The notes: a model not told the origin generated them from the sequence alone. A stretch of 64,000 nucleotides of DNA from Candidatus Brocadiia bacterium (GCA_050015075.1 JBEKCB010000016.1:1-64000), one strand, 5' to 3'; numbered from the stretch's first letter, positions 14,842 to 41,809 are shown. A program made the numbers and translations.

Positions 14842-14868
14842 TCAGGAAACCGCGAAAATCCACGATAA
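14842..14868 (+). promoter_or_regulatory. sigma28-like promoter (variant -10)
   Basis: TCAG-N15-CACGATAA upstream of CHASE2-HD-GYP. Confidence 0.5.
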
Positions 14869-15007
14869 TAGCAGTGTCGGAAGCGGTGGAACGCCCGGAT
14901 TAGCTTGAATTGCGCTGCATCCGGTCCGCGGCGGACCGGTGGCGCTCCCAATGTCGCATGGCTCCGCCACGGTTTTCTTCGAGGCGGCTGCTGAAGCTGC
15001 GTAACCG

Positions 15008-17428
15008 ATGTCCCGGGATATTTCAGGACGAAGAACGGCGATGATCGTCAACGCTTTCAAATCCCTGCTGCGCGGCCTTCGCGTTCTTCGCGGCGCGACG
15101 TTCCTCAGGCAGCTCTGGCGGATGGACGATTTGGTTCGGCGGCTGGCGGCCGGGCTGGCAATCGCCGCTCTGGTCCTGGCGGTCTGGTCGCTGAACGCCT
15201 TCGACTGGCTGCAACTGGACGCGATGAATCTGGGAGCCAGGGCGAGGGCCGTTCCGCCCTGTCCGAACGTCGTGGTGGTGGGCATTGACGACGCGTCGCT
15301 GAGCCGGTTCGGCCAGCTTCCCTGGCCGCGAACGCGCTATGCGAAAGCGATCCAGGAGTTGAGCGCGGCCGGAGCGGAGTCCATTGCGCTGGACATGTGG
15401 TTCCCGGAAGCGGATGATCCCGCCGCCGACGACGTCCTGAGGCAGGCGGCGCAGCAGGCAGGCAACGTCTATCTCGGGCTTTGTTTTGCGGAGGACAAAC
15501 CGCGCGTCAAGGTCACCCGCAGCAACAGCCGCCTGGTCCAGGGCGCGATTAGCGAAGCCCACGTCAACGTCATCGCGGACTCGGATGGGCAGGTTCGCCG
15601 CGTGCCGTGGGAGAGACACACGCTGGCCGACCGTTTCCTCTTCATGCCGGTGGCGCTGGCGGCGCGCCATTTCGGGGTTAAGCCGGAAGACGTGCGGGCC
15701 GAGCAAAATGTGCTGCGGATCGGCGACGTCCATCTTCCGCTCGAGACGCAGCCGGACGGCTCCGACGCGTTCCTGGTGGATCTGCCGGATACGCCCGATT
15801 ACTTCGAAGAGAACTACATCTCCTTTCTGAACGTCGAGAACGGGCTTTTCAAGCCCGAGCAGGTGCGCGGCAAGATTGTGTTCATCGGGCAGGTCATCGT
15901 GGGCGGCGGCTATGCGGACACGTGGGAGACGGCCCGCGGCCGGAAGTTCGGCGTGATCCTTCTGTCGGAGATCACGCAGCAGATCCTGGACGGCCGCGGC
16001 CTGATCCCCGCTCCGAAGGCGTGGACTTTCCTGCTGGTGCTGATGCTCGGCTTGAGCGGCGCGTTCCTGTTTTACCCGCGCCACGCGGTGCTCGGATTCG
16101 GCGCGCATCTGTGTCTGCTGGCGTTCATCTGGGCGTTCTTCTTTTTCGCGATCGTGCGGTACGGTCGCGTGCTTGAGCCGCTGCCGCTGACGGCGGCGGT
16201 CGTCGGTTCGCTGGCCGTCGGCATGGTCCGATCGCTGCGCCGCGCCAGTCACGAGCTGGTGCAGGACGCGCGCGCGATGGAGATCCTCCGCCAGCTCAGC
16301 GAAACGCTCGTCTCGTCCTCGGGCATGCCCTCGATCGTCACCGGCAAGCGGCCGGACGTGAGCCAGTCGTTCGTGCTGCCCGGCCAGACGCCGCAGGTGC
16401 TCCTGCAGACCATCGCGCAGGCGGTCGGCGCCCGGCAAGGAGCATTGTTCATTTCGCGGCAGCCGGGCCAGGGACTGACACGCATCGCGTCGCTCATCGG
16501 TGACGGGGCGCTCCCGACATCCGGGTTCGCCGACCGGGTCAATGAGCGCCTTTTCCAGGGCGGAGGCGCCTTCGCCAGTTGCGATCCCGCGCGCGATCTG
16601 GCCTTCAATGCCGCACCCGTTCCGAACACGCTGCTGGCCATGCCGCTCTCATTCAACGGCCAGGTCATGGGCGCGGTGCATCTCTACGGCAAGTTCTCAA
16701 CAGAGGCTTCCTCCGGAGAGCGCTTCACGCCGGCCGACCTGCGCCTGGTCGCCGTTATGGCGCAGCAGACGATGATCGGGCTGGAGAACGCCTCGCTCTA
16801 CGAAGGGATGCGCGGCATCTTCATGAGCGCCACACTCGCGCTGGCCAACGCGGTGGACGCGAAGGACCCGTACACGCGCGGCCATTCCGAGCGCGTGCTC
16901 GGCTACAGCGAGCAGCTCGCCCGCGCGATGAACCTGCCTCCGCAGGACGTGGAGAGCGTCAAAATGGGCGCCGTGCTGCACGACATCGGAAAAATCGCGA
17001 TCCCGGACAAGATCCTGCACAAGCCGGGCCGGCTCACGGTGGAGGAGTTCGACGTGGTCCGCACTCACCCGGCGCGCGGCGAGGCCATCCTGGCGCCGCT
17101 CGAAGAACTCCGGCCGCTCCGGCCGGGCATCCGCCATCATCATGAGCGATTCGACGGCAAGGGTTACCCGGACCAACTCGCCGGCACGGACATCCCGCTG
17201 CACGCGCGCATCATCTGCGTGGCGGACGCCTTCGATGCGATGACCTCGAAGCGTTACTACCACAAGGCGAAGAGCCTGGAAGAGGGATTGGACGAGATCG
17301 CGCGTTGCAGCGGCGCCCAGTTCGACCCCGAGTTGGCGGAGACCTTCATCAAGGCGCTCAGCAAACGCGCCTCGGCCCCGGTCCTGCCGCAAGCCGTGCT
17401 TCAGGCCTTGGCGGATTACGGACGATAG
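15008..17428 (+). CDS. CHASE2-GAF-HD-GYP cyclic-dinucleotide phosphodiesterase
   Basis: CHASE2 motifs (VVVGIDD.SL..FG.LPWPR, D.DG.VRR, RGKIVFIG); 3 TM helices; GAF; HDIGK...HHERFDGKGYP...ADAFDAM. Start uncertain (15008, 15041 or 15122). Confidence 0.93.
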   Translation: MSRDISGRRTAMIVNAFKSLLRGLRVLRGATFLRQLWRMDDLVRRLAAGLAIAALVLAVWSLNAFDWLQLDAMNLGARARAVPPCPNVVVVGIDDASLSRFGQLPWPRTRYAKAIQELSAAGAESIALDMWFPEADDPAADDVLRQAAQQAGNVYLGLCFAEDKPRVKVTRSNSRLVQGAISEAHVNVIADSDGQVRRVPWERHTLADRFLFMPVALAARHFGVKPEDVRAEQNVLRIGDVHLPLETQPDGSDAFLVDLPDTPDYFEENYISFLNVENGLFKPEQVRGKIVFIGQVIVGGGYADTWETARGRKFGVILLSEITQQILDGRGLIPAPKAWTFLLVLMLGLSGAFLFYPRHAVLGFGAHLCLLAFIWAFFFFAIVRYGRVLEPLPLTAAVVGSLAVGMVRSLRRASHELVQDARAMEILRQLSETLVSSSGMPSIVTGKRPDVSQSFVLPGQTPQVLLQTIAQAVGARQGALFISRQPGQGLTRIASLIGDGALPTSGFADRVNERLFQGGGAFASCDPARDLAFNAAPVPNTLLAMPLSFNGQVMGAVHLYGKFSTEASSGERFTPADLRLVAVMAQQTMIGLENASLYEGMRGIFMSATLALANAVDAKDPYTRGHSERVLGYSEQLARAMNLPPQDVESVKMGAVLHDIGKIAIPDKILHKPGRLTVEEFDVVRTHPARGEAILAPLEELRPLRPGIRHHHERFDGKGYPDQLAGTDIPLHARIICVADAFDAMTSKRYYHKAKSLEEGLDEIARCSGAQFDPELAETFIKALSKRASAPVLPQAVLQALADYGR

Positions 17429-17510
17429 ATGACAGACGATGGACGATGGAAGAGGCTCGCCTCTCGTCCATCGTCCACCGTCCATCGTCCATCATCTATC
17501 GTCTATCGTC
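17421..17510. repeat. Heptamer-based inverted repeat between convergent genes
   Basis: GACGATG/A units at 17421-50 face CCATCGT/CTATCGT units at 17464-510. Confidence 0.75.
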
Positions 17511-17515
17511 CGCCG

Positions 17516-18706
17516 TTACTCCACGCTCAGCGAGTAGTTCGATCCTTCCGTCTGGACCGCCACCTGCACCAGCAGTGTCACCTCCTGCCCGGGGCTGATG
17601 GTGCGCAGCGATGAAGATCCCAGCCAGGAGGAAGAAATGGTCGTGTTGACCGGCACCGGGAAACAGCTGGCGTAGATCAAGCTGCCGTTGACCGTGATCA
17701 CGCTCAACGTGTTGTCGCCGGGCCCGCTCAACGAAATCCGGTTGATCGTGAACGCCTGTTGGCTGACGTTCTGCAGCGTCCAGGTGACGTAGCCGTCGCC
17801 GATGTTCGGCCCGGTCACCACGATCGGGCCCGGGTTCGGCTGCGTTGCGGGCTGCGTCATGGTGAAGGTGTGCGAGCTGCCCGCCGGAAGCGCCATGGTG
17901 CTCGGCCCCGGCCAGACCGTGTCCACCCAGACCGTGCCTTCCGTCACAGCGACGTTCGTCTCGTATTCGCCGGAGGACTTCGAGGTGGTGACGGTGAACT
18001 GCGTGCCGCGCACACCGGCGGTGCAGGCCGGCGTGGCCACGTCGAAGTGCGTCCCATGCGCCGCCTTCACCTCAATGGTGCCCAGCGAGCCGATCGGAAT
18101 TTTCACCGCGCTGTAGATCCGGCCCTGTCCTTCATCGAACGAGACCAGCACGACCACGTTCACTCCGGAGTTAATGGTGACGGTGGTCCCGTCGGCGAAG
18201 GCCAGCGTGCCGCCGGTAACCTGGCTTCCGGCCGCGACAGGCTGATTATTCCAGAGGACCGGCTCGGTCTTGCCCTTCAGGGTCAATCCCGCGCCGAAGG
18301 CGCCGAAGGTCGAATTCTCCACGGTATGGTTCGGGCAGCCGAGGAGGAAGCCGGTGGCCGTCGTCGGCTCGCGCGGCACATAATACTGCGAGTAGCTGTC
18401 GGTGGTCGGATATGGCGAGGACGGGCAGACGAACACCTCCGGCTCGGAGATCACGTTGGACAGCAGCGTCGGCAGCGTTGTCAAGGCGAACGACGGCGTT
18501 TGCTCGTACTCCGTGTAGTACGTCAGCAATCCGGTTGCGATCTGGCGCAGGTTGTTCGCGCACGTCATGCCGCGCGACACCTGTCGGGCGCGGACAATGA
18601 CCCCCGCCGAGAGCGCCGACACCGCGGCGATCACACCGAGCACGACCAGAAGCTCAACCAGCGAAAAGGCTCGTCCGCGACGTTTCCTGCAATCTTGTGT
18701 GTGCAT
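17516..18706 (-). CDS. Prepilin-type N-terminal (DUF1559-like) protein fused to a FecR-like domain
   Basis: RRGRA|FSLVELLVV class III signal; C.NNLRQI; FVCPS; FecR-like FDVATP..TAGVRGTQF.V...VAVTEGTV. Confidence 0.8.
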   Translation of the reverse strand: MHTQDCRKRRGRAFSLVELLVVLGVIAAVSALSAGVIVRARQVSRGMTCANNLRQIATGLLTYYTEYEQTPSFALTTLPTLLSNVISEPEVFVCPSSPYPTTDSYSQYYVPREPTTATGFLLGCPNHTVENSTFGAFGAGLTLKGKTEPVLWNNQPVAAGSQVTGGTLAFADGTTVTINSGVNVVVLVSFDEGQGRIYSAVKIPIGSLGTIEVKAAHGTHFDVATPACTAGVRGTQFTVTTSKSSGEYETNVAVTEGTVWVDTVWPGPSTMALPAGSSHTFTMTQPATQPNPGPIVVTGPNIGDGYVTWTLQNVSQQAFTINRISLSGPGDNTLSVITVNGSLIYASCFPVPVNTTISSSWLGSSSLRTISPGQEVTLLVQVAVQTEGSNYSLSVE

Positions 18707-18998
18707 GGCACCCTCTTACTCTAAAGTTATCAGGCCGATCACACTTCACGCTCAGTGAACAAGTACAATTCCGTTGCAATCTGATGCATCTTATTCTCAC
18801 GTGTCATAGTTCGGCACGTTTGCCTTGTCCGGATGCAACTTCCGGCCACGTTGGCCGACAGCGCAAAGATCACGCCGATCACAGTCTCAAGATAAATAAT
18901 ACCAGTGGCTTACGTATAGGGCTGTCTGCCTTGATGCGCATACGGAAGTCACTTTCCATGAACTCAGTTGCACGTAACTTGATCCAGCTTGCTGATGT

Positions 18999-19014
18999 TG
19001 CGAATTCCGTGCCA
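18999..19014 (-). promoter_or_regulatory. sigma54 promoter candidate for the prepilin-FecR gene
   Basis: TGGCACGGAATTCGCA (GG-N10-GC) on the minus strand. Confidence 0.6.
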
Positions 19015-19180
19015 GGTTTTGGCTCCAAAGTTCCGGTTCGCGTGCAACGGCATTGCACGTCCGCAGCCCGCTTGCGCGCCGCGCGGTAAGGCCGTAACAT
19101 GGGAAGGCTTTCCAGGCGTTCCTTTGTGAGCGAGGGCGGGATGAACCGAGGAGAGATCGAGGCGCTGCTGGCTTTGCCGC

Positions 19181-24640: not shown

Positions 24641-24811
24641 GCAAACGGCTCAAGATTTCGTGATGTTCGGTCGCAGGAGACCGCGGCGCTCGCTCCGGCG
24701 TTTGCCACTGTTGCAGCAGAACCTTTGATTGTGGCATAATCCCGTCGCCGTGGGAATCCGCACCGGTCGCTGGCCTGGCAAGTTCGGAGGCGAGCAGGAG
24801 GGGTCGCAAGA

Positions 24812-26377
24812 ATGGCAAGCCACGAAGTGAATCCGGAAACGCCTGAGGCGCGCGCGTTGCTGGAAAAGGTCTGCAGCAGCAAAACGCTGCCGTCGGTTCC
24901 GGTTGTAGCGGCCAACATCCTGACGCTCTGCAAAGACCCGGATGTGGATTTTGCGAAGCTGGGGGAAATGACCTCGGCCGATGCGGCGCTCGTGGCCAAG
25001 CTTTTGCAGATGGCCAACTCCGCGTTTTTCGCCAGCCATCAGAAGGTTTTCTCGGTCAACGCGGCGGTCGTGCGAATGGGGTTGAAGGTAACGCGCATCG
25101 CGGTCCTCGGGTTCAGCCTGGAGACTGAAATCAGCGGCAAGATGCCCGAGGAGTTCAAGGTCGATCGTTTCTGGCGCTACTCGCTGACGACCGCCAGCGC
25201 CGCCCGCGTCATTGCGGAGACCGTCTGCCCGGCCCAGCGCGACGAGTGTTTTTCCGCCGGAATCCTCCAGGATATCGGGATGGTGGCTCTCCAGTGCGCG
25301 CTGCCGGAGGAGTACGCAAAAGTCCTGGCCGAACACCGGCTGCATCCCACGGTGGAGATCCACGACCTCGAGAAGCGGTTGCTGGGCGTGACACACACGG
25401 AAGTGGGCAGCCGGCTCCTGCGGCAGTGGAACCTGCCCGAAGAGGTCTACGCGCCGATCCGCTACCACCACGGCCTGGACCAGGCGATGGCGGACGGCCT
25501 TTCGCCCGATTTGGTCCAGGTGGCGCGGACGCTCGTCTTGGGCACCCTGGTGGCCGCGCTCTTCCAAGGCAAAACCAAGGGCATTACGTATAAACGGGTC
25601 ATAGACACGGCGCAGCGATACTTCGGGCTGGAGCCGGAAGCCGTCGAGCTGATGTTCGGGAAGATCGAAAAGGTCGTGCGGAGCACGTGCGAGCTGTTCC
25701 AGGTTGACCCGCGCTCGATGCCCGCTTATGAGCAGATCCGGCTGCGGGCCACTCACGAAGTGGCCCGGCTGGCCGCCGAACTAGGCCAAGAGGCGCGCTC
25801 GGCCGAGAACCTCGCCGACCAGCGCACCGAGGAGTTGCGCCAGCTCAAGCAGGAAAGCGATGAACTGAGAAGACTCATCTCTCTTGACGACCTGACCCTT
25901 TTGCTCAATCGCCGGGAGTTTCTGAAGAGGTTCATGGCCGAGATCGTGCGCAGTCGCCGCCATGAGCACGAGCTGGCGCTCGTGATGGTGGACATTGACG
26001 ACTTCAAGTCGGTCAACGACACCTACGGTCACGCGGCCGGTGACGAAGTGCTGAAGCACCTGGGCGGTTTCCTGCAAGCCGAAAGCCGCAAGTCGGACGT
26101 GGCTGCCCGCGTGGGCGGGGACGAGTTCGTGGTGATGCTGCCCGAGACGGACCTCGACGGCGCAATCGCCGCCGCCGAAAAGCTGCGTTTCGGCATTGCC
26201 ACGTCGTCAAAGGGATGGACCCAGAGAGTGCCCGGCATCACCGTCAGCGTGGGCGTGGTCCACTCCCGATACAGCTCGCACTCCTTCGACGAGGGTATTA
26301 TCCTCGATCAGGCGGATAAGTGCATGTACCAGGCAAAGCGGGACGGACGAAATTGCACGCGCTACGCCACCATCTAG
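24812..26377 (+). CDS. HDOD-GGDEF diguanylate cyclase
   Basis: HDOD (LPSVP, D.ALVAKLL..ANS, GILQDIG), coiled coil, RKSD I-site and GGDEF. Confidence 0.93.
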   Translation: MASHEVNPETPEARALLEKVCSSKTLPSVPVVAANILTLCKDPDVDFAKLGEMTSADAALVAKLLQMANSAFFASHQKVFSVNAAVVRMGLKVTRIAVLGFSLETEISGKMPEEFKVDRFWRYSLTTASAARVIAETVCPAQRDECFSAGILQDIGMVALQCALPEEYAKVLAEHRLHPTVEIHDLEKRLLGVTHTEVGSRLLRQWNLPEEVYAPIRYHHGLDQAMADGLSPDLVQVARTLVLGTLVAALFQGKTKGITYKRVIDTAQRYFGLEPEAVELMFGKIEKVVRSTCELFQVDPRSMPAYEQIRLRATHEVARLAAELGQEARSAENLADQRTEELRQLKQESDELRRLISLDDLTLLLNRREFLKRFMAEIVRSRRHEHELALVMVDIDDFKSVNDTYGHAAGDEVLKHLGGFLQAESRKSDVAARVGGDEFVVMLPETDLDGAIAAAEKLRFGIATSSKGWTQRVPGITVSVGVVHSRYSSHSFDEGIILDQADKCMYQAKRDGRNCTRYATI

Positions 26378-26447
26378 TGTTTAGTTCCGTAAATTGGCGT
26401 ACCAATTTTCGCAACTAAACACGGCCCAACGGAACGTGTAACTCCTA

Positions 26448-26476
26448 AGAAAATGCGCGCTCGGCGCGCATTTTCT
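26448..26476. terminator. Hairpin, probable bidirectional terminator
   Basis: AGAAAATGCGCGC-TCG-GCGCGCATTTTCT, a perfect 13-bp inverted repeat 70 nt after the GGDEF stop. Confidence 0.55.
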
Positions 26477-26548
26477 ATTGATGCACCAGCCGCGCAGCCG
26501 TCGGCGCGGCTAATGCGCTCGGCGTAACGACGCGGCTTATTGCGGTCA

Positions 26549-26591
26549 TGCTTCCTTGCGGAAATAGGACGCCTATTTCCGCAAGGAAGCA
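26549..26591. repeat. Perfect 20-bp inverted repeat
   Basis: TGCTTCCTTGCGGAAATAGG-ACG-CCTATTTCCGCAAGGAAGCA. Confidence 0.85.
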
Positions 26592-26653
26592 CTAGCGCCC
26601 TGTCCCGTAAATAACACATAAGCCCAACCCGCATCCCTTCTGCCGCCTCGAGC

Positions 26654-26680
26654 TAAAGAACGCGCCCTTTCTTACGATAA
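26654..26680 (+). promoter_or_regulatory. sigma28-like promoter (variant -10)
   Basis: TAAA-N15-TACGATAA, 48 nt upstream of the EAL-HDOD ATG. Confidence 0.65.
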
Positions 26681-26728
26681 TCCCTATGGAGTTTGTTGCC
26701 ATACCGCGGAAGTTTCAGGTGGGACGCC

Positions 26729-28060
26729 ATGGGCAGTCTTGCCGCAACAACTGCGCCGGGCAGTGCCGGCGCAGCCGGTGTCGCCAGCGCCGCCAGCGTT
26801 GCAAACACAGCAAAGGGCGCAGGTGTATCCCTGTCCAGGGTCTTCATCGCCCGGCAGCCCATCTTCGACGTGCAGCAGAAGGTCTACGGCTACGAACTCC
26901 TCTTCCGCTCCGGGCCCGAGAACGTCTTCAAACACGCGGAACCTGATCAAGCCAGCGCCAAAGTCATGACCGACGGCACTCTGATCCTCAGCATGGAGGC
27001 CATCAGCGGGGGCAAGCTCGTCTTCATCAACGTCACGCGCAACATCCTGCTCAACGACTATATCAGCCTTCTGCCCAGGGATCTGACCGCGGCGGAGATC
27101 CTGGAGACCATCGAGCCGGACCGGGAGGTCGTCGGCGCCTGCAGCAGACTCAAGAAGGCCGGCTACATGATCGTCCTGGATGACTTCGTCTACGGAGAGC
27201 AGTACGCCGACCTCATGAACCTGGCGGACATCGTCAAGGTGGATTTCCTGTCCACTTCGGCGGAGGAACGCCGGCAGGTCCTGTCGCGGTTCACAGGCCC
27301 GAACGTCCGTTTCCTGGCCGAGAAAGTCGAGACGCACGAAGTCTTCAAGGAGGCGAGCGGTCTGGGATACAGTTATTTTCAGGGGTACTTCTTCAGCAAG
27401 CCTGTGATCGTCTCATCCCGGGATGTGCCGGGCTTCAAGCTCAACTACCTGCAGATGCTCCAGGAGATTCAGTTGCCCGGCGTCAACTTCCATCACTTGG
27501 AAGCGATTATCAAGCGCGACATGGCGCTCTCTTTCAAGCTGTTGCGTTACATCAACTCCGCATATTTCGGCTTGAGCAACAAGGTCAGCTCCATCATGCA
27601 TGCCATAACGCTGCTCGGGGCGCGGGAATTCAAACAATGGGCCTCGCTCGTCGTTATGGCCAGTATGGGCAGCGACAAGCCCGACGAACTCGTCGTCCAG
27701 GCGCTCATCCGCGGGAGGTTCTGTGAGTCCCTCGCCCCGATGCTCGGCATGAAGCAGCGGTCGCAGGAACTCTTCCTCCTGGGAATGTTCTCCGTGATTG
27801 ATGCGATCCTGGACCGCCCGCTGGAAGAGATCCTCAAGGACCTGCCCCTGTCCGATGAGATCAAGGACGCGCTCACTGGAAAGCCCAACCGCCTGCGCGC
27901 CGTCTTTGACTACGTCCTGGCTTACGAGAAAGGGGACTGGAATCATTTGACCGAAATGGCCCGCGCCCTGGGGCTCGACGAGTCCGACATTCCGGCGGTC
28001 TATTGGCACGCCGTGCATTGGGCGCAGAAGAGCTTTGGCGAAGTCAACGCTGCGGTGTGA
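26729..28060 (+). CDS. EAL-HDOD c-di-GMP phosphodiesterase (YuxH/PdeH-like)
   Basis: FIARQPI, YELLFR, LDDF, LAEKVE and FQGYFF motifs, followed by HDOD. Confidence 0.92.
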   Translation: MGSLAATTAPGSAGAAGVASAASVANTAKGAGVSLSRVFIARQPIFDVQQKVYGYELLFRSGPENVFKHAEPDQASAKVMTDGTLILSMEAISGGKLVFINVTRNILLNDYISLLPRDLTAAEILETIEPDREVVGACSRLKKAGYMIVLDDFVYGEQYADLMNLADIVKVDFLSTSAEERRQVLSRFTGPNVRFLAEKVETHEVFKEASGLGYSYFQGYFFSKPVIVSSRDVPGFKLNYLQMLQEIQLPGVNFHHLEAIIKRDMALSFKLLRYINSAYFGLSNKVSSIMHAITLLGAREFKQWASLVVMASMGSDKPDELVVQALIRGRFCESLAPMLGMKQRSQELFLLGMFSVIDAILDRPLEEILKDLPLSDEIKDALTGKPNRLRAVFDYVLAYEKGDWNHLTEMARALGLDESDIPAVYWHAVHWAQKSFGEVNAAV

Positions 28061-28265: not shown

Positions 28266-28281
28266 TGGCACGAGTATTGCT
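28266..28281 (+). promoter_or_regulatory. sigma54 promoter
   Basis: TGGCACGAGTATTGCT, a consensus -24/-12 site. Confidence 0.75.
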
Positions 28282-29616: not shown

Positions 29617-29645
29617 TTGACGCGTCGCGCGAATGCGAGTAATAT
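29617..29645 (+). promoter_or_regulatory. Candidate sigma70 promoter of the rhaA fusion
   Basis: TTGACG-N17-TAATAT. Confidence 0.55.
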
Positions 29646-29721
29646 TTTGCTTCCGCACTGTGCGGCCGAGCCGCCTGGCCGGCGTGATCCTCTGAAATCA
29701 GCAAGTAAGGGAATTGCGGTC

Positions 29722-32133: not shown

Positions 32134-32344
32134 TGAACCCTGACGGGGCTGTCCCCTGCCGGCAATGCACGTCGGCCGCGCAGTGCGACGAATGGGATAG
32201 CTGGCTATTTTAGCTCCCTATAATCGGCGGGAATCCAGGATTTCGGCGCGCGGGTCCGGGTTCCAGCCGTTCGGCCCTGAGCTCACGGCCGAAGGCCTTT
32301 CGCGGGATTGGCAGCTAGCGCATAAAGCGTTTTCAGATCAACCT

Positions 32345-32580
32345 TTACTACACGCTGGGTTCGTTTTTTCAAATCGCCTTCCGCGCACAACCCTCCTTTC
32401 CGTCAACGACGGGTTCACGCAAAGCCGCAACGGACGGCAACTTCCGCCGGAACGACCGCAAGGCATATAACCCCTTTCGCTAATGGGCGTTACTACACGC
32501 TGGGTTCGTTTTTTCAAATCGTTTCGCGCGCGCAATCCTCGTACTACGTAACAACGGGTTTCACGCAAAGCCGCAAAAGC
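32345..32580. repeat. Two direct repeats of about 88 bp (identical 32-bp core, period 145)
   Basis: TTACTACACGCTGGGTTCGTTTTTTCAAATCG at 32345 and 32490; both copies end in ACGGGTT(T)CACGCAAAGCCGCAA. Confidence 0.85.
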
Positions 32581-32632
32581 CTGCCCCCGGATTTCGTAAA
32601 CGGGGGCGCCAAGAACGCCAACTGATATTGCA

Positions 32633-32780
32633 ACCACGGAATACACGGAAGATACTGAAGCTATTTAGGTAAATCATTCGGTGTGCTCCGTGTATTCCGT
32701 GGTGGAGGCCTTTGTCTCTTTGCGCCTTTGCGAGAGACACGTCGTTTCCGGTCCTTCGTCTTTGAGCCTTCGCGTGAGAC
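32633..32780. repeat. 9-bp-periodic inverted repeat cluster
   Basis: accacggaatacacggaa pairs with ctccgtgtattccgtggt; also ctttgcgcctttgcgagag and ctttgagccttcgcgtgag. Confidence 0.65.
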
Positions 32781-32851
32781 ACTTTTCTTTTTCAAAAAAA
32801 TCGCCATGTATTATAACATGGGATTTTCGTCGCCGAGCGGACGGGGAAAAG

Positions 32852-32935
32852 TCAGTGCGCTTCGAAGCGGGTTCAGTGCGGTTGGGAGCGGCTTGAGTGC
32901 GCTTCGGTGCGCTTCGCAGCGGTTTGAGTGCGCTT
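32852..32935. repeat. Degenerate tandem repeat of about 21 bp
   Basis: Recurrent T(C/G)AGTGCGCTT..AGCGG units. Confidence 0.6.
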
Positions 32936-33173
32936 TTTTCGGCCGGTTGAATTTGACAGCATGCTTGGTTGCCGACTTGTCCGCCGAAGCCTTGGAGGAG
33001 CTGGATTGTAGAATGACGAATAGAGCAGATGCTGCCAAGGTGCTTTCGCCGCGCACTTGTCAATGCCGGGAAAGCGGAAAAGAGCTCAGCAGATCACAAA
33101 TGTTTCGTAATCCAATCAAGAATTCTTAAAATGGGTGCCTGTCCCCGGTTTTTCTATGACGGGGGCCGCATCA

Positions 33174-33773
33174 CTAACCAATACGCTTACGCCACGACCC
33201 GTTGTTGATGTTCGTAGCGATAATCTTGATGGTTCGTTCTCGAACCTCAAAGGGAAGCCCTGAAAGTTCATATTTGACCCGGCACCCGGAAAGTTCATAT
33301 TTGAACCGGCAGGCTGGGCTTTCGCAGTCGAGGTACGTTGTATTCGGCACACCTATGGGAATCCTCGGCGCATGTTCATATAAGCCGTCAAGGATGCTCC
33401 CGCAGCCGGGACATATCGCCTGTAAGTTAACTATCTTTGGCTTTATCCAATGGTAGCTCCACCGAAATCGCATACCGCCAAATGAATCTTGTCGGTAACG
33501 CCTATACGGTTGCAGCACTAGCCGTACAACCCACAAGAGAATGAGCATGGCAAACAGGCCAGCCAACACAGCGGCAAGTAGGGTGAAAACCTGCCGCCAT
33601 GTAAGCCCGTAGTCTTTGGTCACAAAGGGGGTAATCCAGCGAGCGACAAACAAGAGGGTTATTCCCAGCCCGATTAGTAGCAGACGCGCTATCCACCCGT
33701 GTATGCCTTTTTCAAACGAGGCGAGAATTTTGTCCTTGTGATACGCAAGCCTCTTTTTGATTGCACCGGACAT
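33174..33773 (-). CDS. Hypothetical membrane protein with a C-terminal Cys cluster
   Basis: Two TM helices; CPGC...CESPAC; lower GC; in-frame 27-bp duplication. Confidence 0.6.
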   Translation of the reverse strand: MSGAIKKRLAYHKDKILASFEKGIHGWIARLLLIGLGITLLFVARWITPFVTKDYGLTWRQVFTLLAAVLAGLFAMLILLWVVRLVLQPYRRYRQDSFGGMRFRWSYHWIKPKIVNLQAICPGCGSILDGLYEHAPRIPIGVPNTTYLDCESPACRFKYELSGCRVKYELSGLPFEVRERTIKIIATNINNGSWRKRIG

Positions 33774-33918
33774 AGCTACTTCTCTCAGATTATGCTTGCG
33801 CCACCATCAGACCAACTTCGTGACCTTTAGGTTGCGGAAGCATGCACGCTCGCCGATGCCCGGTCCGCTTGGCCCGCTGTCGCGGGCCGGCCCGATGTTG
33901 CCTGAATAAAGTACGGAC

Positions 33919-34551
33919 CTACCGGTTAGGGCGCGCGACGCCATCTGTACCGATAGTATACGACCTTCCATCATTGCCTATAAAATATCGCTCTGATTGC
34001 CAGGACGATATAACGCCCTCACGGACGTAAATATTGTACTCTGTGCCGAAAACCTGAGCCCCTGTGTTCGGATTGGGCTTGGCCTTATCTGTGATAATAG
34101 CAATGTAGATAGTGCCATCTGAGCTATCCTGCATCTGTTTGAGCTTGACACCCAGGGCACTTTCCGCATCGGCAACCGTCATGCCCTTAATCAGGCGGTG
34201 CTCCGCAATGGCCTTTTTTATATCGTCAACCGGGCTGGCAGGCGCTTGCGAACGCGCCAGCGCCGCTGCGTTGGAAGCTTTCAAGTCGGCAATCTGCTTA
34301 TTGAGCGCCGTGATTGTCTTGAGCTGGCCGCGTACCGTGATTTTCAGCATCTCATTCTCTGTCCGCAAGGTCTCATTCTCTGTCCGCAACGCTGCCAGTT
34401 CTGCCGACGCATCGTGCGCTCTGGTCGTGGACGCGGCAGAACCTTGAACCGGCCCTGGGGCGGCAGATGGGGCCGGCTCCGGCGCATCAGCGGCAATGGC
34501 CGAGCCCGACGCCAAGAAAAGGAACAGGACAACACTCATAAGCCCCTTCAT
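33919..34551 (-). CDS. Hypothetical secreted coiled-coil protein
   Basis: GGGAGG RBS; signal peptide (AIA); coiled coil; IKGMT...ES.LG motif. Confidence 0.7.
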   Translation of the reverse strand: MKGLMSVVLFLFLASGSAIAADAPEPAPSAAPGPVQGSAASTTRAHDASAELAALRTENETLRTENEMLKITVRGQLKTITALNKQIADLKASNAAALARSQAPASPVDDIKKAIAEHRLIKGMTVADAESALGVKLKQMQDSSDGTIYIAIITDKAKPNPNTGAQVFGTEYNIYVREGVISSWQSERYFIGNDGRSYTIGTDGVARPNR

Positions 34552-34671
34552 GTTGCGCCTCCCTTTCGCAACCTCGCATGAAGAAGAGGGGGCGGCAGCC
34601 CGTGCGAGTTGCGGCCCCGGTTGCAATCCGGTCGCCGCCCCGTGCGCTATTTATAGGTGCAAGGAATGAAC

Positions 34672-35400
34672 TCAGTCCAACCGAACACCACTTGTTCGCA
34701 TTCCGCCGGTTGCGAGCCAGTAGGACAAAATGATTAGGCCGGCCAGAGCGCAAAGACCCGCGCCTACCCGAAGCGCCAATGTGATGTGCGCGCCGGTTTT
34801 TTCGATTTGTGCCTCAAGCGGCCCATATTTTTTCGCAATGGCGTCCAATTGGGATTCATAGGCAGACCACCGGGCGTTCGTCGCGGCAGTATAGGCATCA
34901 GAGAGGACCTGCAATCGGGAAGAATCAATCGGCGTCGCATTGTAATCAGCCCGCGCCTTCTGTTGGGCGACTTCCGTAGCTTCAAGGATTTTGTCCGTCG
35001 CGGCTTTCCATTGTTGCTGGACCCTGGCTACCGCCCCGGCAGTGTGGGACACCTCGTCGACGGAGAGGAAGAAGGCGATTATTCCCAGGACGATGAGACC
35101 CCAGCCCCAAACGAAGGAAGCCAGCGACCGTCGCGGCGGCGAATCCCGTCGTCCCTGCGGCGGTCGAACCGACCGGTTCGGCCGCCAAGCCGCCTCGAAA
35201 TCGGCGTAATGGCCGCCGATTATCTTCCCGTCCTTGGGTTGGTTCGATTCCGCAACGGCCTCTGGTTCAGACGCGGCCGGCCGTTCCTGCGGCGGCACGC
35301 GGTTCAACGTTCCACATTTCGGGCACTTCCCTGTCTTGCCCGCCAGACTCGGCGGCGCTTTCACTCTCGCCCCGCAGGACTCGCAATTGAACCCGATCAT
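34672..35400 (-). CDS. Zinc-ribbon-containing membrane protein
   Basis: MIGFNCESCG...AGKTGKCPKCG N-terminus; two TM helices flanking a helical domain. Confidence 0.75.
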   Translation of the reverse strand: MIGFNCESCGARVKAPPSLAGKTGKCPKCGTLNRVPPQERPAASEPEAVAESNQPKDGKIIGGHYADFEAAWRPNRSVRPPQGRRDSPPRRSLASFVWGWGLIVLGIIAFFLSVDEVSHTAGAVARVQQQWKAATDKILEATEVAQQKARADYNATPIDSSRLQVLSDAYTAATNARWSAYESQLDAIAKKYGPLEAQIEKTGAHITLALRVGAGLCALAGLIILSYWLATGGMRTSGVRLD

Positions 35401-35628
35401 GCCGCCACCCGCCTTTCTCCCCTTGCCCGAATTGCGCCCGCCATTCTATGCCCCGCCTCTGCCCGCTGCAACCGGCGAATCAGATTATTTTCCAGCATAA
35501 ATAAAACGTTTTTGTTTGGTGGCGGCCCAGACAGTCAAGAGATTTTCCCCTCCTGAAAGAACCTAAGAAAATTCTCCAACCCCGGCCGGCCAGTGTCGCC
35601 AGCCCGCCCCCGACAGAGGGTGAGCACG

Positions 35629-35922
35629 TCAGGTTCCCTTCGTCGCCCTCACCATCGCCAGAATGCCCGCGCGGAGCGGTTCCGGGAGCTTGGGCCAGGC
35701 CCTCACCACGTCCGCCAGGTCAGGCGATTTCTCGGAAAGAAACGCCAAGCAGGACGCCAAGACGTTTTCCTTGCTTGCGGAATCGCCTTTGTTTACAATG
35801 CCTTCCGTAGAGTGGGCGGCGGACTCATAATCCGTCTGTCCGCCGTTAGAGTCGGGGCCGTGCCCAACTGATGACGGGGCGGACGTGCCAAGCCCTTTCG
35901 CTCCGTGTGCGTTGTTCTTCAA
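35629..35922 (-). CDS. Small hypothetical ORF (PDLA.VV.AWP.LP...RAGILAMV) overlapping the tRNA remnant
   Basis: Protein-like C-terminal helix motif; start uncertain because the N-terminal part reads antisense through the tRNA fragment. Confidence 0.45.
   Translation of the reverse strand: MKNNAHGAKGLGTSAPSSVGHGPDSNGGQTDYESAAHSTEGIVNKGDSASKENVLASCLAFLSEKSPDLADVVRAWPKLPEPLRAGILAMVRATKGT
35816..35866 (+). pseudogene. Degenerate 3' fragment of a tRNA with CAT anticodon (Met/Ile2); possible att-site scar
   Basis: Anticodon arm GCGGA-CTCATAA-TCCGT; T-arm CGCCG-TTAGAGT-CGGGG; 3' end GTGCCCA; no 5' acceptor strand or D arm. Confidence 0.7.
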
Positions 35923-36017
35923 CCCGTCCTAAGGTACAATGTTTACAGAGGGCAAGAAGCCCTCGCGAGCCGCCTTCTTCACACAACTTCATACAAATCC
36001 CAACGGAAAAACATCCC

Positions 36018-37448: not shown

Positions 37449-37500
37449 AATGTACTAAAACTCCTCGTCTTTCTTCGTGTCCTTCGTGCCTTTCGTGGTA
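37403..37500. repeat. 9-bp-periodic inverted repeat overlapping both convergent gene ends
   Basis: accacgacg acacaacgg gcacgacgg tcacgacg faces cttcgtgtc cttcgtgcc tttcgtggt. Confidence 0.7.
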
Positions 37501-38492
37501 AGAGCCGGCGGAGAGAGAATGGCGGCTTCGGACGCGGCGGGGGACCATAGGCAGACCCGGTTGCGGCCCTGCCGCTTGGCGCAAATGAGCCCTTCATCGG
37601 CGCGGACGGCCAGTTGTTCCTCGCTCCGAACCTCCGGCGTCAGGACCGCCGCCCCGATGCTGAGGGTGACGCGGATTTCCGCCTGGTCGTTGCGGAAGCC
37701 GGCGGCGGCCACGGCGTTGCGGACGTTCTCGGCGCACTTGAGCGCGCCGGCCGCGCCGGTATTCGGCAGGATGATGCCGAACTCCTCGCCGCCGTATCGC
37801 GCCAGGATGTCCACTTCGCGCACGGTGGAGAACATCGTCTTGGCCACCCGCTGCAAGACCTCGTCGCCCGTGCGGTGGCCGTACTTGTCATTCACGTCCT
37901 TGAACCGGTCCAGGTCCGCCATGAGGCAGGCGAGCGGCTGCGCGTAACGGACGCTTCGGACGTATTCGTACCGCAGCCGCGCCCAGAAGTAACGGACGTT
38001 GTAGATGCCGGTCAGGTCATCGGTAATCGAAAGGTACTTCAGCCGGTCCACCAGCCGCTGCTGCTCGGCCATGTCGCGGACGTGGAGGATGGAATATACG
38101 CCGGCTCCGCCGCGACTGTCCCCCGGCTGCTCGACCTGGCCGGTAACCTGGCCGAACTCCGCGCACGAGAGGAGCAGCAGCGCCGGGAAGGTGGAGCCGT
38201 CCTTCCGCCGGGCGAGGCCTTCGCCGAACCAGGTCTTCCGGCTCGCGAGCGCCTTGACCACCTCCTGCTCCGCGCCCTCGGGTCCCTTCGGAGGAAAAAG
38301 CGCGGTCGCAGTCAACTGGAGAAACTCGTCGGGGGAGTATCCGAAAGCGCGCGAAGCGGTGGCGTTGATGAGCGCCGTCCGGCCGCGCTCGTCCACCGTC
38401 AGGATGGAGTCCATCGCGCCTTCGAGGATTTGACGAAGGAGCGCGTTCTGGCCTTGAAGGGTCTCGATCGTAACGGCCGCGTCGTCCGCCAT
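37455..38492 (-). CDS. PAS-GGDEF diguanylate cyclase
   Basis: PAS (RRKDGSTFP); TDDLTG.YN, DLDRFK.VND.YGH, REVD I-site and GGEEF. Confidence 0.94.
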   Translation of the reverse strand: MADDAAVTIETLQGQNALLRQILEGAMDSILTVDERGRTALINATASRAFGYSPDEFLQLTATALFPPKGPEGAEQEVVKALASRKTWFGEGLARRKDGSTFPALLLLSCAEFGQVTGQVEQPGDSRGGAGVYSILHVRDMAEQQRLVDRLKYLSITDDLTGIYNVRYFWARLRYEYVRSVRYAQPLACLMADLDRFKDVNDKYGHRTGDEVLQRVAKTMFSTVREVDILARYGGEEFGIILPNTGAAGALKCAENVRNAVAAAGFRNDQAEIRVTLSIGAAVLTPEVRSEEQLAVRADEGLICAKRQGRNRVCLWSPAASEAAILSPPALTTKGTKDTKKDEEF

Positions 38493-38542
38493 TCGACGGC
38501 CCGCTTCCTGATGATCCGGACATGGACGTCGTCGCGGGCGTC

Positions 38543-38571
38543 AATATACCGCCGCCGCCGTCAACCGTCAA
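38543..38571 (-). promoter_or_regulatory. sigma70 promoter of PAS-GGDEF
   Basis: TTGACG-N17-TATATT on the minus strand. Confidence 0.6.
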
Positions 38572-38605
38572 GAAAGATTATCGCCGGAGGAACGCGGCGC
38601 CCGGG

Positions 38606-40579
38606 TCAGTGCTCGGTCATCTTCTCCAGGCTCAGGTCCAGGAACGCGCTGACCAGCGCCGGGTCGCAGCGCGATCCGGCCCCCTCGGCCATCATGCTGC
38701 GCGCCGCGGCGAAATCCATCGCCGCGCGGTAGATGCGATGGGAAACCAGCGCGTCGAACATGTCGCAAATGGCCACAATTCGCGCCCCGAGCGGGATCGC
38801 CTCGCCGCAAAGGCGGTCGGGATATCCCTGGCCGTCGAAGCGCTCATGGTGATGGCGGACAATCGGGGCGAGTTCGCGCAGGTGAACGGTGCGGGCGAAC
38901 ATGCTCGCGCCGATCACCGGGTGCGCCGCGACGATCCCGGACTCCTCCACGGTCAACGGGCCGGGCTTGCAGAGCAGCGTGTCCGGGATGCAGATCTTGC
39001 CCACGTCGTGCAGCAGGGCTGCGTCCTCGACGACGAAGACGTCCCTCGAGGCGATGTTCAGGGTGCGCGCAAGTTCGCCGGCGTAGGTGCGGACCTGCCG
39101 CGAATGGCCGTGCGTGTCCGGGCTGCGCGCGTCCACCATGCCGGCGAAGAATTCCAGGGTCTCCTGGTACGTGCGCGAGATTCGCGAGAGCGCCTCGGCG
39201 TTGTCGGCGGCCGCGGAAGCGCCTTCGGCCAGGGCGGAGAGCCTCCGCGCGTCCTCGGCGGAGAAGGCGTGCGGCCTGGAGGAGAACACCGCGAGCAGAC
39301 CGAACGGCTTTTCGCCGGCGGTCAGCGGCGCGCTGAGGCAGGAGACCAGCGCGCGGTGCGTCTCAAAGGCGAAGCGGCCGGGCGTCAGCGCCGGGGACGG
39401 AAGCGCTCCTGTCCCGGCGGCGTCGCCCCTGTCCAGCGACGCCGCCATCTTGCCCTGGATCGCTTCGAGAATCGGCGAACCCACGGGAACGTCCGGCGCG
39501 GTCCGGAGTTCGGCATCCTTCTCCGTCAGCAGCAGCACGGCGCAGATCTCGGCGGCGGTCAGACGCGCCGCGCTGGTGAGGAGCTGCCGGCACATGCGGT
39601 CGCGGTCTGCGTTGAGCGAAAGGCTGCGGCTGACCGTGACCAATTCCTCCAGCTCGGCCACCTGTTCGGCGGCCGTCTCGTAGAGCCGGGCGCTCTCGAG
39701 GGTCACCGCCAGGTGCGCGGCGAACATCTCCATCAGCTCGATGGAATTCTCCTGGAACCCGGGCCCGTCCACACGGCGCAGGCACAGCGCGCCGAGCGGG
39801 CGGTCGGACACGAACAGCGGCATGAAGGCGTAGCAGTCGCCGGACGGGACATCGGCATCGAGAAGGACGGCCTTCCGGCGGACGGCTTCCAGGCACTGCT
39901 CGATCAGCGAATCGGTGCGGCACCGCCGCGTCAGGGAGCGGCCGGAATGCGCTGTGACGAAGAGAGTCTCCTGCGCCGGCTCATAGTGGAAGAGGATGCC
40001 GCTGTCCGCACCGAAGTTTCGGCAGGCCAGTTCGAGGGCCTTCTGCGGCAAGGCGTGCGGGTCGGTGGTTTTCGACAGGTTCCGCGCCAGGTCGAGCAGG
40101 GCCGAGGTCTCGTTCAGGAAAACGCCGCAACGCTGAGTGTTGACCGCCCCGAGGCAGCACGCGACAGTGCGCTGCAGCGCGCGCGCCTCGAACGGCAGAG
40201 GGATAAAATCGGCGGCGCCGCGACGCATGGCCTCCATGGCGTCGCCGATCGTCCCGCCGGAGGACATCACCACCACGCAGGTGTCCGGATACATCTCCTT
40301 GAGGTTCGCCAGGAGCTGCATGCCGTCCATCCGCGGCATGGCCATCTCGGTCAGGACGAGGTCGGACGCGCGCTCGCGCATCAGTTCGAGCGCCTCGGCG
40401 CCCGACTGGGCCGCGCGCACGGCGTAACCGGCCTCCTTCAGGGCCGAGATGCAATGCTCTGCAGTGTCCGCCTCATGATCCACCACCAGGATTTGCCAGA
40501 GTCCGTTTTTGCGCTCCGATGCCGATCTGGGAAGCTGCAGCATGATTCCGGCCACCTTTTCGTTATGAAGTCTCCACAT
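38606..40579 (-). CDS. Atypical REC-GAF-GAF-HD-GYP phosphodiesterase
   Basis: REC fold (ILVVDH, LVLTEMAMP); two GAF domains; HDVGK, HHERFDGQGYP and CDMFDAL. Confidence 0.92.
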   Translation of the reverse strand: MWRLHNEKVAGIMLQLPRSASERKNGLWQILVVDHEADTAEHCISALKEAGYAVRAAQSGAEALELMRERASDLVLTEMAMPRMDGMQLLANLKEMYPDTCVVVMSSGGTIGDAMEAMRRGAADFIPLPFEARALQRTVACCLGAVNTQRCGVFLNETSALLDLARNLSKTTDPHALPQKALELACRNFGADSGILFHYEPAQETLFVTAHSGRSLTRRCRTDSLIEQCLEAVRRKAVLLDADVPSGDCYAFMPLFVSDRPLGALCLRRVDGPGFQENSIELMEMFAAHLAVTLESARLYETAAEQVAELEELVTVSRSLSLNADRDRMCRQLLTSAARLTAAEICAVLLLTEKDAELRTAPDVPVGSPILEAIQGKMAASLDRGDAAGTGALPSPALTPGRFAFETHRALVSCLSAPLTAGEKPFGLLAVFSSRPHAFSAEDARRLSALAEGASAAADNAEALSRISRTYQETLEFFAGMVDARSPDTHGHSRQVRTYAGELARTLNIASRDVFVVEDAALLHDVGKICIPDTLLCKPGPLTVEESGIVAAHPVIGASMFARTVHLRELAPIVRHHHERFDGQGYPDRLCGEAIPLGARIVAICDMFDALVSHRIYRAAMDFAAARSMMAEGAGSRCDPALVSAFLDLSLEKMTEH

Positions 40580-40634
40580 CCTGTCCGGTCACCGTCGTTG
40601 CCTCACCGGAGATAGCGGCAACCGGTTAATGGGA

Positions 40635-40661
40635 TATTCGTGGAGAAGGCAATGAACTTTA
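40635..40661 (-). promoter_or_regulatory. sigma28-like promoter (variant -10)
   Basis: TAAA-N15-CACGAATA (-35 extends to TAAAGTT) on the minus strand, 55 nt before ATG 40579. Confidence 0.6.
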
Positions 40662-40715
40662 GCGAAGGGCGGGGAATTCCGCAGCGGAGCGCCTAAAGCG
40701 CAATGATCGCCGGGC

Positions 40716-40970
40716 TCAGGCTTCGAAGTCCAGGAGTCCGTCGTCGTCGGCCGCGGCGGAGGAAGCGGAGGCTTCGGGTTGCGTCTCGTCCTTGGCATCG
40801 GCCGGTTCGTCGGCCTCAGCCTTTTGATCGGGATCCTCGGAAGATTTCTGCTCCTTCGAGAGCTGCGCCTCGAAGCGGCGCGGGTTACCGGAACCTCGCT
40901 CGCGTTTCGCCGCCGCCGCGACTATGCGGTCGGTCTGAAGGTTCCTCGGGATCGAAATGTCGCCGTCCAT
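40716..40970 (-). CDS. Small charged hypothetical protein at the end of the flagellar operon
   Basis: GAGG RBS; 20 nt after fliA; ends in GLLDFEA. Confidence 0.65.
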   Translation of the reverse strand: MDGDISIPRNLQTDRIVAAAAKRERGSGNPRRFEAQLSKEQKSSEDPDQKAEADEPADAKDETQPEASASSAAADDDGLLDFEA

Positions 40971-40990
40971 GGCAACCTCTCAAACTCCGC

Positions 40991-41809
40991 TCAGGGCGCA
41001 CCAAGCCCCGCGCGGCTCAGGGTGCGCTTGAGCCGCTGAAGGGCCTGCGTATGGAGCTGGCACGCGCGCGACGCGGTCACGTCGAGCACCTTGCCGATCT
41101 CCTGCAGCATCAGGTTCTCGTGATAGCGCAGGACGATGACCTGGCCTTCGCGCTCCGGCAAGTTGCGGATCGCCTCGGCCAGGACGCGTTTCTGGTCGGT
41201 GAATTCGGCCTGCTCATACGGATTCCGAGGCGCGCGCAGGCCCAGTTCGGAGGAGAGAAGGCTGACTTCCGCGTTCAGCGTCTCCCCTTCGCTCGAACTC
41301 CGGTGATCCGCCTTCGACAGCGCGAGCAGCCACGTCAGGCGATCCGCCGACACGTGGAGACCCTCGGCCAGTTCCTCCGTGGTTGCCGCCTGGCCCGTTT
41401 GCCGCGCGTCGTCCACGCTCTTCCGGAGGCGCTTCACCTGGCCGCGCAGGTCCGAGGAGAGCCAGTCATAGCGGCGCAGTTCGTCGAGCATCGCGCCCCA
41501 GATGCGCGGGATCGCGTAGCTGTGAAACGGAACTTTCCGGCCGGCGTCGAACCTCTGCGCGGCCTCGGTGAGCCCCAGCAAGCCGGCCGCGAGCAGGTCG
41601 TCGCGGTCCACGTGCGGCGGCAGGTTGCGCGCGACTTTACTGAGCACGTACTTGACCAGCGGCACATTGCGCTCCACGAGGCTTTCGACGCCGCTCTCGC
41701 CGGCGGCGCTCTTGCGATCGCCTGCGGAGGAGAGATGCGGGGCGTCCGCGTGCGCTTTATCTCTCGGGAGCGCGGCGTGCTGCGCGTGAGTCGCTGCTTT
41801 CGAGCCCAT
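40991..41809 (-). CDS. fliA: FliA/WhiG family sigma factor (sigma28)
   Basis: LPPHVDRDDL, YA..RI.GAMLDELR..DW, LPERE..V..L.Y.E.L and VT.SR.CQLH motifs. Confidence 0.93.
   Translation of the reverse strand: MGSKAATHAQHAALPRDKAHADAPHLSSAGDRKSAAGESGVESLVERNVPLVKYVLSKVARNLPPHVDRDDLLAAGLLGLTEAAQRFDAGRKVPFHSYAIPRIWGAMLDELRRYDWLSSDLRGQVKRLRKSVDDARQTGQAATTEELAEGLHVSADRLTWLLALSKADHRSSSEGETLNAEVSLLSSELGLRAPRNPYEQAEFTDQKRVLAEAIRNLPEREGQVIVLRYHENLMLQEIGKVLDVTASRACQLHTQALQRLKRTLSRAGLGAP

Follow-up and report, generated by a model that had tools for sequence, protein, structure and literature searches.

A σ28 variant without Arg91 and candidate promoters without the extended −10 GC in a Candidatus Brocadiia bacterium

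The flagellar σ factor σ28 (FliA) recognizes promoters of the form TAAA-N15-GCCGATAA, and one of its arginines (R91 in E. coli) is assigned to the GC dinucleotide of the extended −10 element. The locus described here raises the question of whether a σ28 that lacks this arginine goes together with promoters that lack the GC, and which genes such promoters would control. The locus lies in a stretch of 64,000 nucleotides (GCA_050015075.1, JBEKCB010000016.1:1-64000; hereafter the window) from Candidatus Brocadiia bacterium, a planctomycete with a genome of 4.64 Mb and 64.7% G+C. The window is positions 1-64000 of contig C16 of that genome, and coordinates without a contig name refer to it. Our comparisons suggest that the local FliA probably belongs to a distinct σ28 subfamily that is independent of the GC, with a late regulon made up of the flagellin gene fliC, genes for EAL-HDOD proteins and probably genes for HD-GYP proteins, i.e. 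putative phosphodiesterases of cyclic di-GMP (c-di-GMP).

Residue 91 in the local FliA and its homologues

The fliA gene (40991..41809, minus strand) encodes a protein of 272 amino acids (aa) with Pfam Sigma70_r2 and Sigma70_r4 domains, and closes the long fliE-to-flhA flagellar operon, directly 3′ of flhB-flhA; two related metagenome contigs, L112 and L114, show the same synteny. In an HMMER alignment to E. coli σ28 (6pmi_F) and P. aeruginosa σ28 (9wsm_F), RIWGAMLDELRRYDWLSSDLR of the local FliA stands opposite RIRGAMLDELRSRDWVPRSVR, and four substitutions are found (E. coli numbering): R76W, P90S, R91S and S92D. Serine replaces the arginine (E. coli R91, P. aeruginosa R97) to which reading of the extended −10 GC is assigned; R74, D81 and R84, the readers of the −10 core, are retained (PRIWGAMLDELR aligned to QRIRGAMLDELR). 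The alignment bears out the original prediction, made from the window alone, of an R91 loss alongside intact D81 and R84. The role which that prediction gave to R91 agrees with the available text of PMC12784957, in which P. aeruginosa R97 makes contact with the −15 and −14 guanines; mutation of R91, or of both bases of the GC, is severely defective in E. coli, and single-base changes of the GC are mild (Koo et al. 2009, as cited there). The same text reports that P. aeruginosa R82, equivalent to E. coli R76, stabilises the template −12C, promotes melting and helps to bind FlgM. A bioRxiv paper on the structure of E. coli σ28 lists contacts by R58, R74, Q73, Q63, T69 and H26, and leaves R91, D81 and R84 unmentioned.

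The membership of the protein in the FliA_WhiG family is clear from its Pfam domains, from its top NCBIfam matches (FliA_WhiG, WhiG and FliA) and from its PDB matches, the best of them to WhiG and FliA (E 4e-38 to 2e-32). Its score against the curated FliA_WhiG model, TIGR02479, falls just under the cut-off (187.4 vs. 189.6 bits), a near miss that mirrors the divergent region 3.

Comparison with the 121 best database homologues separates two groups. In the 55 closest homologues (47-97% identity), position 91 is without exception S, T, A or Q instead of R; W76 is present in 52 of them, and S90 and D/E92 in most. All 66 more distant matches (~36-44% identity) keep the arginine, in the form [P/T]-R-S. 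R91S thus appears to be part of a clade signature rather than a local accident. Few reference genomes carry the subfamily, which is known here mostly from metagenome proteins: at E <= 1e-44 the variant was found in 2 of 132 genomes of the class, the present one and a same-genus genome (G001), the other 130 being negative, and was absent from 400 sampled genomes of the phylum. Independent loss of R91 is seen elsewhere, with A, T or V at this position in Schwartzia, other Selenomonadales and Anaerotignum. In a narrow literature search we found neither a description of a σ28 subfamily with W76/S90/x91/D92 nor a report tying natural loss of R91 to GC-less promoters.

The neighbourhood of the gene is conserved as well. 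The order flhA, small open reading frame (ORF), fliA, small ORF, REC-GAF(-HD-GYP) recurs in metagenome contigs with 50-56% identical members of the subfamily, L114 and L112 among them. As this order is conserved down to ~50% FliA identity, the gene for a REC-GAF-GAF-HD-GYP protein downstream of fliA (38606..40579, minus strand, Pfam assignment; hereafter HD-GYP2) is a conserved companion of the variant fliA. Between the two genes lies a conserved ORF for an acidic protein of 84 aa (40716..40970, minus strand), which has an in-frame indel in G001 and no match to FlgM or any other family in Pfam or NCBIfam scans. On the 5′ side of fliA, an ORF of 93 aa (41848-42129, minus strand) is hydrophobic and membrane-like by eye; ORFs of similar size flank the variant fliA in L112 and L114, and none of these has a Pfam match.

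Candidate promoters of flagellin and phosphodiesterase genes

We scored σ28-like sites out of ten consensus positions of TAAA-N15-NNCGATAA. The exact form occurs nine times in the genome, vs. 2, 1, 2, 3, 0 and 1 times with spacers of N12-14 and N16-18; in G001 it occurs seven times, vs. four for the reversed pattern. Six of the nine exact sites lie upstream of called genes: fliC (C16:88990-89016, plus strand; TT at positions −15/−14), the EAL-HDOD gene of the window (TA), its paralogs on contigs C10 (TG) and C25 (CT), a gene for a PAS hybrid histidine kinase (C15:21866; GC) and a gene for an EF-hand protein (GC). A T follows most exact sites, which extends the core to CGATAAT.

The excess at N15 makes the site before the window's EAL-HDOD gene significant, and this is the only one of the three motifs of the original prediction that is significant on sequence alone. 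The site, TAAAgaacgcgccctttctTACGATAA(t) at 26654..26680 (plus strand), lies ~48 nucleotides (nt) before the ATG at 26729; the TAAA-N15-TACGATAA that had been proposed at this place is an exact match, and possesses every element of the canonical promoter except the GC. The G001 genome, with a FliA 92% identical and 83-90% identity in the DNA aligned around the promoters, has the same −35 and −10 elements (GCTAAAGAACGC and TTACGATAATCC) and three changes in the spacer; a related metagenome contig, L107, has TAAA-N15-TACGATGA at the corresponding promoter. Spacer sequence is common to the window and C10 promoters, and the fliC site is conserved in G001.

The protein encoded downstream (26729..28060, plus strand; 443 aa) matches Pfam HDOD and, weakly, EAL (34.2 bits, cut-off 31.3; profile positions 121-236, the second half). 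Its translation contains ELLFR, DDF, KVD, EKVE and FQGY, which, by eye, we take to be EAL motifs, and phosphodiesterase activity is likely. Between the stop codon of the preceding HDOD-GGDEF gene and the EAL-HDOD promoter (26374-26600) stand ~3 tandem copies of a palindromic repeat of ~70-80 bp; the unit is present in >40 copies on both strands in G001 and looks like a dispersed repeat of the REP (repetitive extragenic palindromic) or MITE (miniature inverted-repeat transposable element) type.

Beyond the window, contig C16 continues with fliK, flgDE, a PilZ gene, flgFGAHIJ, flgN, flgKL, fliW and csrA, and carries fliC-fliS-fliD at 89 kb. The exact site before fliC makes flagellin a candidate for transcription by FliA from a TAAA-N15-..CGATAA promoter. 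This promoter stands 206 nt before the start codon (C16:88990-89222), the contig also has fliW and csrA, and the long fliC leader may be a CsrA target.

To relate residue 91 to the extended −10 element, we compared it with the best σ28-like site <=350 nt 5′ of the flagellin genes in genomes of class relatives, and with the best flagellin sites of some Firmicutes. FliA proteins reading P-R-S or P-R-T around position 91 are accompanied by GC at −15/−14 in seven genomes and, for P-R-S, by GT in two; an additional genome with no FliA match at E <= 1e-20, from a genus whose other members have P-R-S, gave no clear dinucleotide. FliA proteins with G-K-S or G-R-S are accompanied by TC in four genomes and GC in two, and one with TGW by GG; [T/G]C is found in six of seven cases of the K91-type family. 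The two genomes with Ser at position 91 have TT (present genome) and CT (G001). Schwartzia, a Selenomonadales metagenome-assembled genome and Anaerotignum, with T or V at position 91, have best flagellin sites of 7-9/10, of the form TAAG-N15-NN-CGATA[T/A/G], where NN is AA, TT, AC, AA, TC, AT or TA; their sole GC precedes TGATAA and not an intact core. Taken together, Arg91 is accompanied by G at −15 in all nine scorable cases, and G is rare without it. These comparisons support a relation in which loss of the residue goes with loss of the GC, R91 apparently tracking the G at −15 of flagellin promoters.

The GC is likewise missing from all six candidate targets of the variant FliA, as the original prediction had it for the three of them in the window. 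The dinucleotides are TT and CT for fliC, TA for the EAL-HDOD gene of the window (three species), TG for the paralog on C10, CT for that on C25 (two species), CA and TA for the CHASE2-GAF-HD-GYP gene described below (HD-GYP1), and CA for HD-GYP2 in six sequences (CC in L112). The base at −15 is a pyrimidine in six of six genes; that at −14 is A in three, T in two and G in one.

Apart from fliC, the candidate targets are putative phosphodiesterase rather than cyclase genes, in agreement with the original prediction. Family searches of the genome found 3 EAL genes, all of them EAL-HDOD paralogs, 11 HD-GYP genes and 11 GGDEF genes. At N15, a site scoring 8/10 or more precedes each of the three EAL genes (10/10 in every case), 3 of the 11 genes for HD-GYP proteins and 1 of the 11 for GGDEF proteins, against a background of 4.2%. 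The two cyclase genes of the window have no site of at least 8/10, the best match being 6/10 for each: the HDOD-GGDEF gene (24812..26377, plus strand) and the PAS-GGDEF gene (37455..38492, minus strand). The latter lies downstream of HD-GYP2, and the gap of 113 nt between them contains a terminator-like hairpin and a σ70-like promoter, TTGACG-17-TATATT (38571-38543).

The HD-GYP genes of the window are preceded by weaker sites. The HD_5 (HD-GYP) domains of the two proteins score 145 and 123.6 bits (cut-off 27.2). HD-GYP1 (15041..17428, plus strand; Pfam CHASE2-GAF-HD-GYP) has TCAG-N15-CACGATAA(t) at 14842..14868 (plus strand), 172 nt before the ATG at 15041, a start favoured by a 1-nt indel in G001 between 15008 and 15041. 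The site scores 8/10, has a good −10 element without the GC, and differs at a single place in G001 (CA to TA) over its 27 nt; the rest of the intergenic region is ~81% identical by a rough count from the alignment. HD-GYP2 has cTAAAGTTcattgccttctcCACGAATAtccc at 40635..40661 (minus strand), 55 nt before its ATG; it also scores 8/10 and lacks the GC. An alignment of seven rows, six of them distinct, covered the present genome, G001 and five metagenome contigs (FliA 83-91% identical in these five). No invariant block of the intergenic region is longer in it than CTAAAGTT and CCACGAATATCCC, which are separated by a variable spacer. Before the orthologous gene, L112 (FliA 51% identical) has CAAGTT-N13-CCGAATAT, and L114 (FliA 50% identical) has a loose TAAA-N15-GGCGAAGA. 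The seven rows share, with little variation, a palindrome, GGAATTCC (40690-40700, minus strand), ~12 nt upstream of CTAAAGTT; it may be a regulator site. From sequence conservation, we regard the HD-GYP2 element as a convincing and the HD-GYP1 element as a plausible conserved promoter-like element.

Canonical paralogs and competing readings

The genome contains two further σ28-family genes, C9:40720-41442 and C7:73463-74413 (both minus strand), both with the canonical RIRGAMLDxLR..DWLPRSVR in which R91 is kept, and both above the FliA_WhiG cut-off of 189.6 bits (221.1 and 198.4 bits). A maximum-likelihood tree joins both canonical copies (97/94) to the FliA of a genome of the same order (G004), whose gene is placed behind a gene for a MinD/FlhG-type ATPase; the FliA of the flagellar cluster stands alone on a long branch. 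The paralog on C7 has as neighbours genes for three REC-HD-GYP proteins, a REC-GGDEF protein, a hybrid kinase, a PilZ-T2SSE ATPase, an MshE-type ATPase and a GAF-SpoIIE phosphatase; a weak FlgN-like ORF is also found in this cluster. The paralog on C9 adjoins a gene for a GAF-SpoIIE phosphatase. No σ28-like site of at least 9/10 was found near either gene.

GC-type promoters are present in the same genome. The GC-type GCCGATAA is kept in G001 at the hybrid kinase site and at C21:52767, with diverged spacers; a site on C35 has AC here and GC in G001, and a site on C17 has AA in both. The promoter at C21:52767 (minus strand), TAAA-N15-GCCGATAAT, has no ORF of at least 35 aa with gene-like G+C at third codon positions within the 900 nt 3′ of it, and its transcript would start GGA-rich (caggaagtataaggagga); it may specify a small RNA, perhaps one that binds CsrA. 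Sites of another form, TAAAG-N14-[GA][AC]CGAGAA, stand at C10:46643 and 48147 (minus strand) and C28:51038 (minus strand), before genes for TPR, CHAT-protease and Ser/Thr-kinase proteins; CGAGAA and CGACAA cores are also found before flagellin genes in the K91-type family.

The reading that we prefer, and hold to be probable, is as follows. On the variant FliA, the surface turned towards the upstream side of the −10 element would be remodelled (R76W, P90S, R91 to S/T/A/Q, S92 to D/E) and the CGA-core readers R74, D81 and R84 retained; the σ factor would recognise TAAA-N15-nnCGATAA(T), the extended −10 GC being no longer needed or read. With the hook-basal body finished, the variant FliA would be freed and would transcribe fliC and the three EAL-HDOD genes from TAAA-N15-YnCGATAAT promoters, and probably also the window's two sensor HD-GYP genes. 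The concentration of c-di-GMP would fall while the filament is being built, coupling completion of the flagellum to a drop in c-di-GMP, as with E. coli YhjH.

Several observations weigh against this reading. By sequence alone, neither HD-GYP site rises above chance: sites of 8/10 quality precede 125 of 2975 upstream regions (4.2%) at N15, vs. 79-139 at N11-N19, and matches with <=2 mismatches number 13 in the window vs. 10.4 +/- 3.2 in shuffles; a control on the antisense strand of the upstream regions is confounded, as divergent genes share them. The −35 element of HD-GYP1 is poor (TCAG), and the core of HD-GYP2 is CGAATA rather than CGATAA. The covariation between residue 91 and −15 comes from few independent lineages (~3 with R, ~3 without), the low-GC genomes of the Firmicutes would lack the GC by default, and the 7-9/10 flagellin sites of Selenomonadales and Anaerotignum are not individually above chance. 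A fourth EAL-HDOD copy in G001 (L064, G001:C67; 87% DNA identity to the window gene) has a different upstream region, AT-richer by eye and without a σ28-like site. The conserved GCCGATAA promoters in the genus imply that loss of the GC is not genome-wide, and the pairing of the three σ28 paralogs with individual sites is one that we infer. Finally, the gene calls come from a rough home-made codon-usage caller.

The first group of these observations bears most directly on a narrower alternative, in which only fliC and the EAL-HDOD genes are σ28 targets and one or both HD-GYP motifs are chance matches or conserved elements of another σ factor or regulator. We consider this alternative rather unlikely. 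It accounts for two 8/10 sites of a quality met at any spacing and for a window total equal to the shuffle expectation; the conserved GGAATTCC palindrome just 5′ of the HD-GYP2 element would fit a regulator; and HD-GYP1 is compared with one genome only. It fits less well with the finding that the two longest invariant blocks of HD-GYP2 are exactly the −35 and −10 elements at σ28 spacing, with a similar CGAATAT element before the orthologue at 51% FliA identity, or with a single change in the 27-nt block of HD-GYP1 amid ~19% divergence (rough count). The original prediction of σ28-type motifs before the two HD-GYP genes (TCAG-N15-CACGATAA, and TAAA-N15-CACGAATA at 40661-40635 on the minus strand) is thus sound as to their place, and the support for them as promoters lies in position and conservation in relatives, not in the match itself.

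The original prediction went further, in that the variant FliA would positively read a new dinucleotide, with YA replacing GC, and serve a regulon orthogonal to that of canonical σ28; we hold this to be improbable. The constant pyrimidine at −15, in all six candidate genes and every species seen, speaks in its favour, as do the invariant CCA before CGAATAT in six distinct HD-GYP2 sequences with varying spacers, the acidic residue conserved at position 92 of the subfamily, and the coexistence of two canonical paralogs and GC-type promoters, which would press for insulation. YA itself, however, fits three of the six genes: the base at −14 is variable, fliC has TT/CT, and the EAL-HDOD paralogs have TA, TG and CT. 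A genome scan with the predicted pattern, T(A/C)A(A/G)-N15-YACGA(T/A)(A/T)A, gave 7 hits at N15 vs. 0-6 at other spacings, and no upstream hit beyond the three founding sites. As the six promoters are partly descended from one another, a pyrimidine preference at −15 is suggestive at most and statistically weak, and discrimination against GC promoters has no sign in the present evidence.

Very doubtful, finally, is a reading in which loss of R91 is neutral or compensated, every TAAA-N15-nnCGATAA promoter is read redundantly by all three σ28 paralogs, and the split between GC and non-GC promoters is drift: TAAA, spacing and CGATAAT are common to both promoter types, one site has AC here and GC in G001, and single-base GC changes are mild in E. 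coli, but the R91 and double GC mutants are severely defective there (both as cited in the available text of PMC12784957), the four-residue signature marks the 55 homologues, with R91 lost in every one and the other three changes in most, and the G at −15 follows R91 across relatives.

The preferred, GC-independent reading can be extended, tentatively, to a rebuilt extended −10 reading head (W76, S90, S/T/A/Q91, D/E92) that lets the three σ28 factors run insulated regulons, pyrimidine-first promoters serving flagellin and c-di-GMP phosphodiesterases and GC promoters serving other genes. We rate this extension as rather unlikely, and orthogonality of the variant FliA regulon as possible. The original prediction is therefore partly supported: it was right in its core, namely the joint loss of R91 and GC and the choice of phosphodiesterases over cyclases, and wrong or unproven as to YA, orthogonality and the novelty of the c-di-GMP circuit.

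Two features of the contig lie outside these questions. A protein of 405 aa with a PilZ domain is encoded between flgE and flgF (C16:68622-69839, plus strand; L037:4622-5839) and is a candidate c-di-GMP brake or effector. A stretch of 3.9 kb (32134-36017) has no gene from the codon-usage caller, though minus-strand ORFs of 199-242 aa are present; it may be foreign or lower-GC DNA.

Relation to known systems and meaning

The local FliA resembles the σ28 factors of E. coli and P. aeruginosa (6PMI, 9WSM) in family, domain order, location of its gene in a flagellar locus and retention of R74, D81 and R84, and its candidate promoters resemble theirs in TAAA, spacing and the CGATAA core before flagellin. 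It differs from them in R91S, R76W, P90S and S92D, in flagellin and phosphodiesterase promoters without the GC, and in its NCBIfam score below the cut-off. GC-less σ28 promoters are not confined to this lineage: the available text of PMC4626219 describes Campylobacter jejuni σ28 promoters with a −10 element CGATwt and no extended −10 GC, and draws no link to a residue change in Campylobacter.

A σ28 regulon that lowers c-di-GMP is already a textbook design and not new. The phosphodiesterase YhjH (PdeH) of E. coli is a class 3 flagellar gene product under the late σ factor (PMC4238805, in part), and the phosphodiesterase BifA of P. putida is partly controlled by FliA (PMC5300878, in part). The organism described here would likewise place c-di-GMP phosphodiesterase genes under the late flagellar σ factor; unlike YhjH and BifA, several genes appear to be involved, i.e. 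the three EAL-HDOD paralogs and, probably, the pair of sensor HD-GYP genes, all predicted from sequence.

The coexistence of σ28 paralogs has a counterpart in Actinomycetota, where, according to the available text of PMC12871210, WhiG1 and WhiG2 form clades of flagellar-cluster and non-flagellar σ28 factors whose regulons include type IV pili and c-di-GMP metabolism. As with WhiG1 and WhiG2, a canonical paralog stands here among HD-GYP, GGDEF, PilZ and T2SSE ATPase genes; unlike there, the flagellar copy is the divergent one.

In conclusion, the subfamily is a naturally occurring test case for the mutational and structural work that assigns the extended −10 GC to E. coli R91 (P. aeruginosa R97): a whole clade without the arginine, with flagellin promoters without the GC. 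If the three σ28 paralogs are insulated from each other, the four-residue signature would amount to a compact specificity switch, and the insulation would be a case of natural partitioning of promoter specificity after σ28 duplication or acquisition, of interest for σ-factor evolution and for the building of orthogonal promoters.

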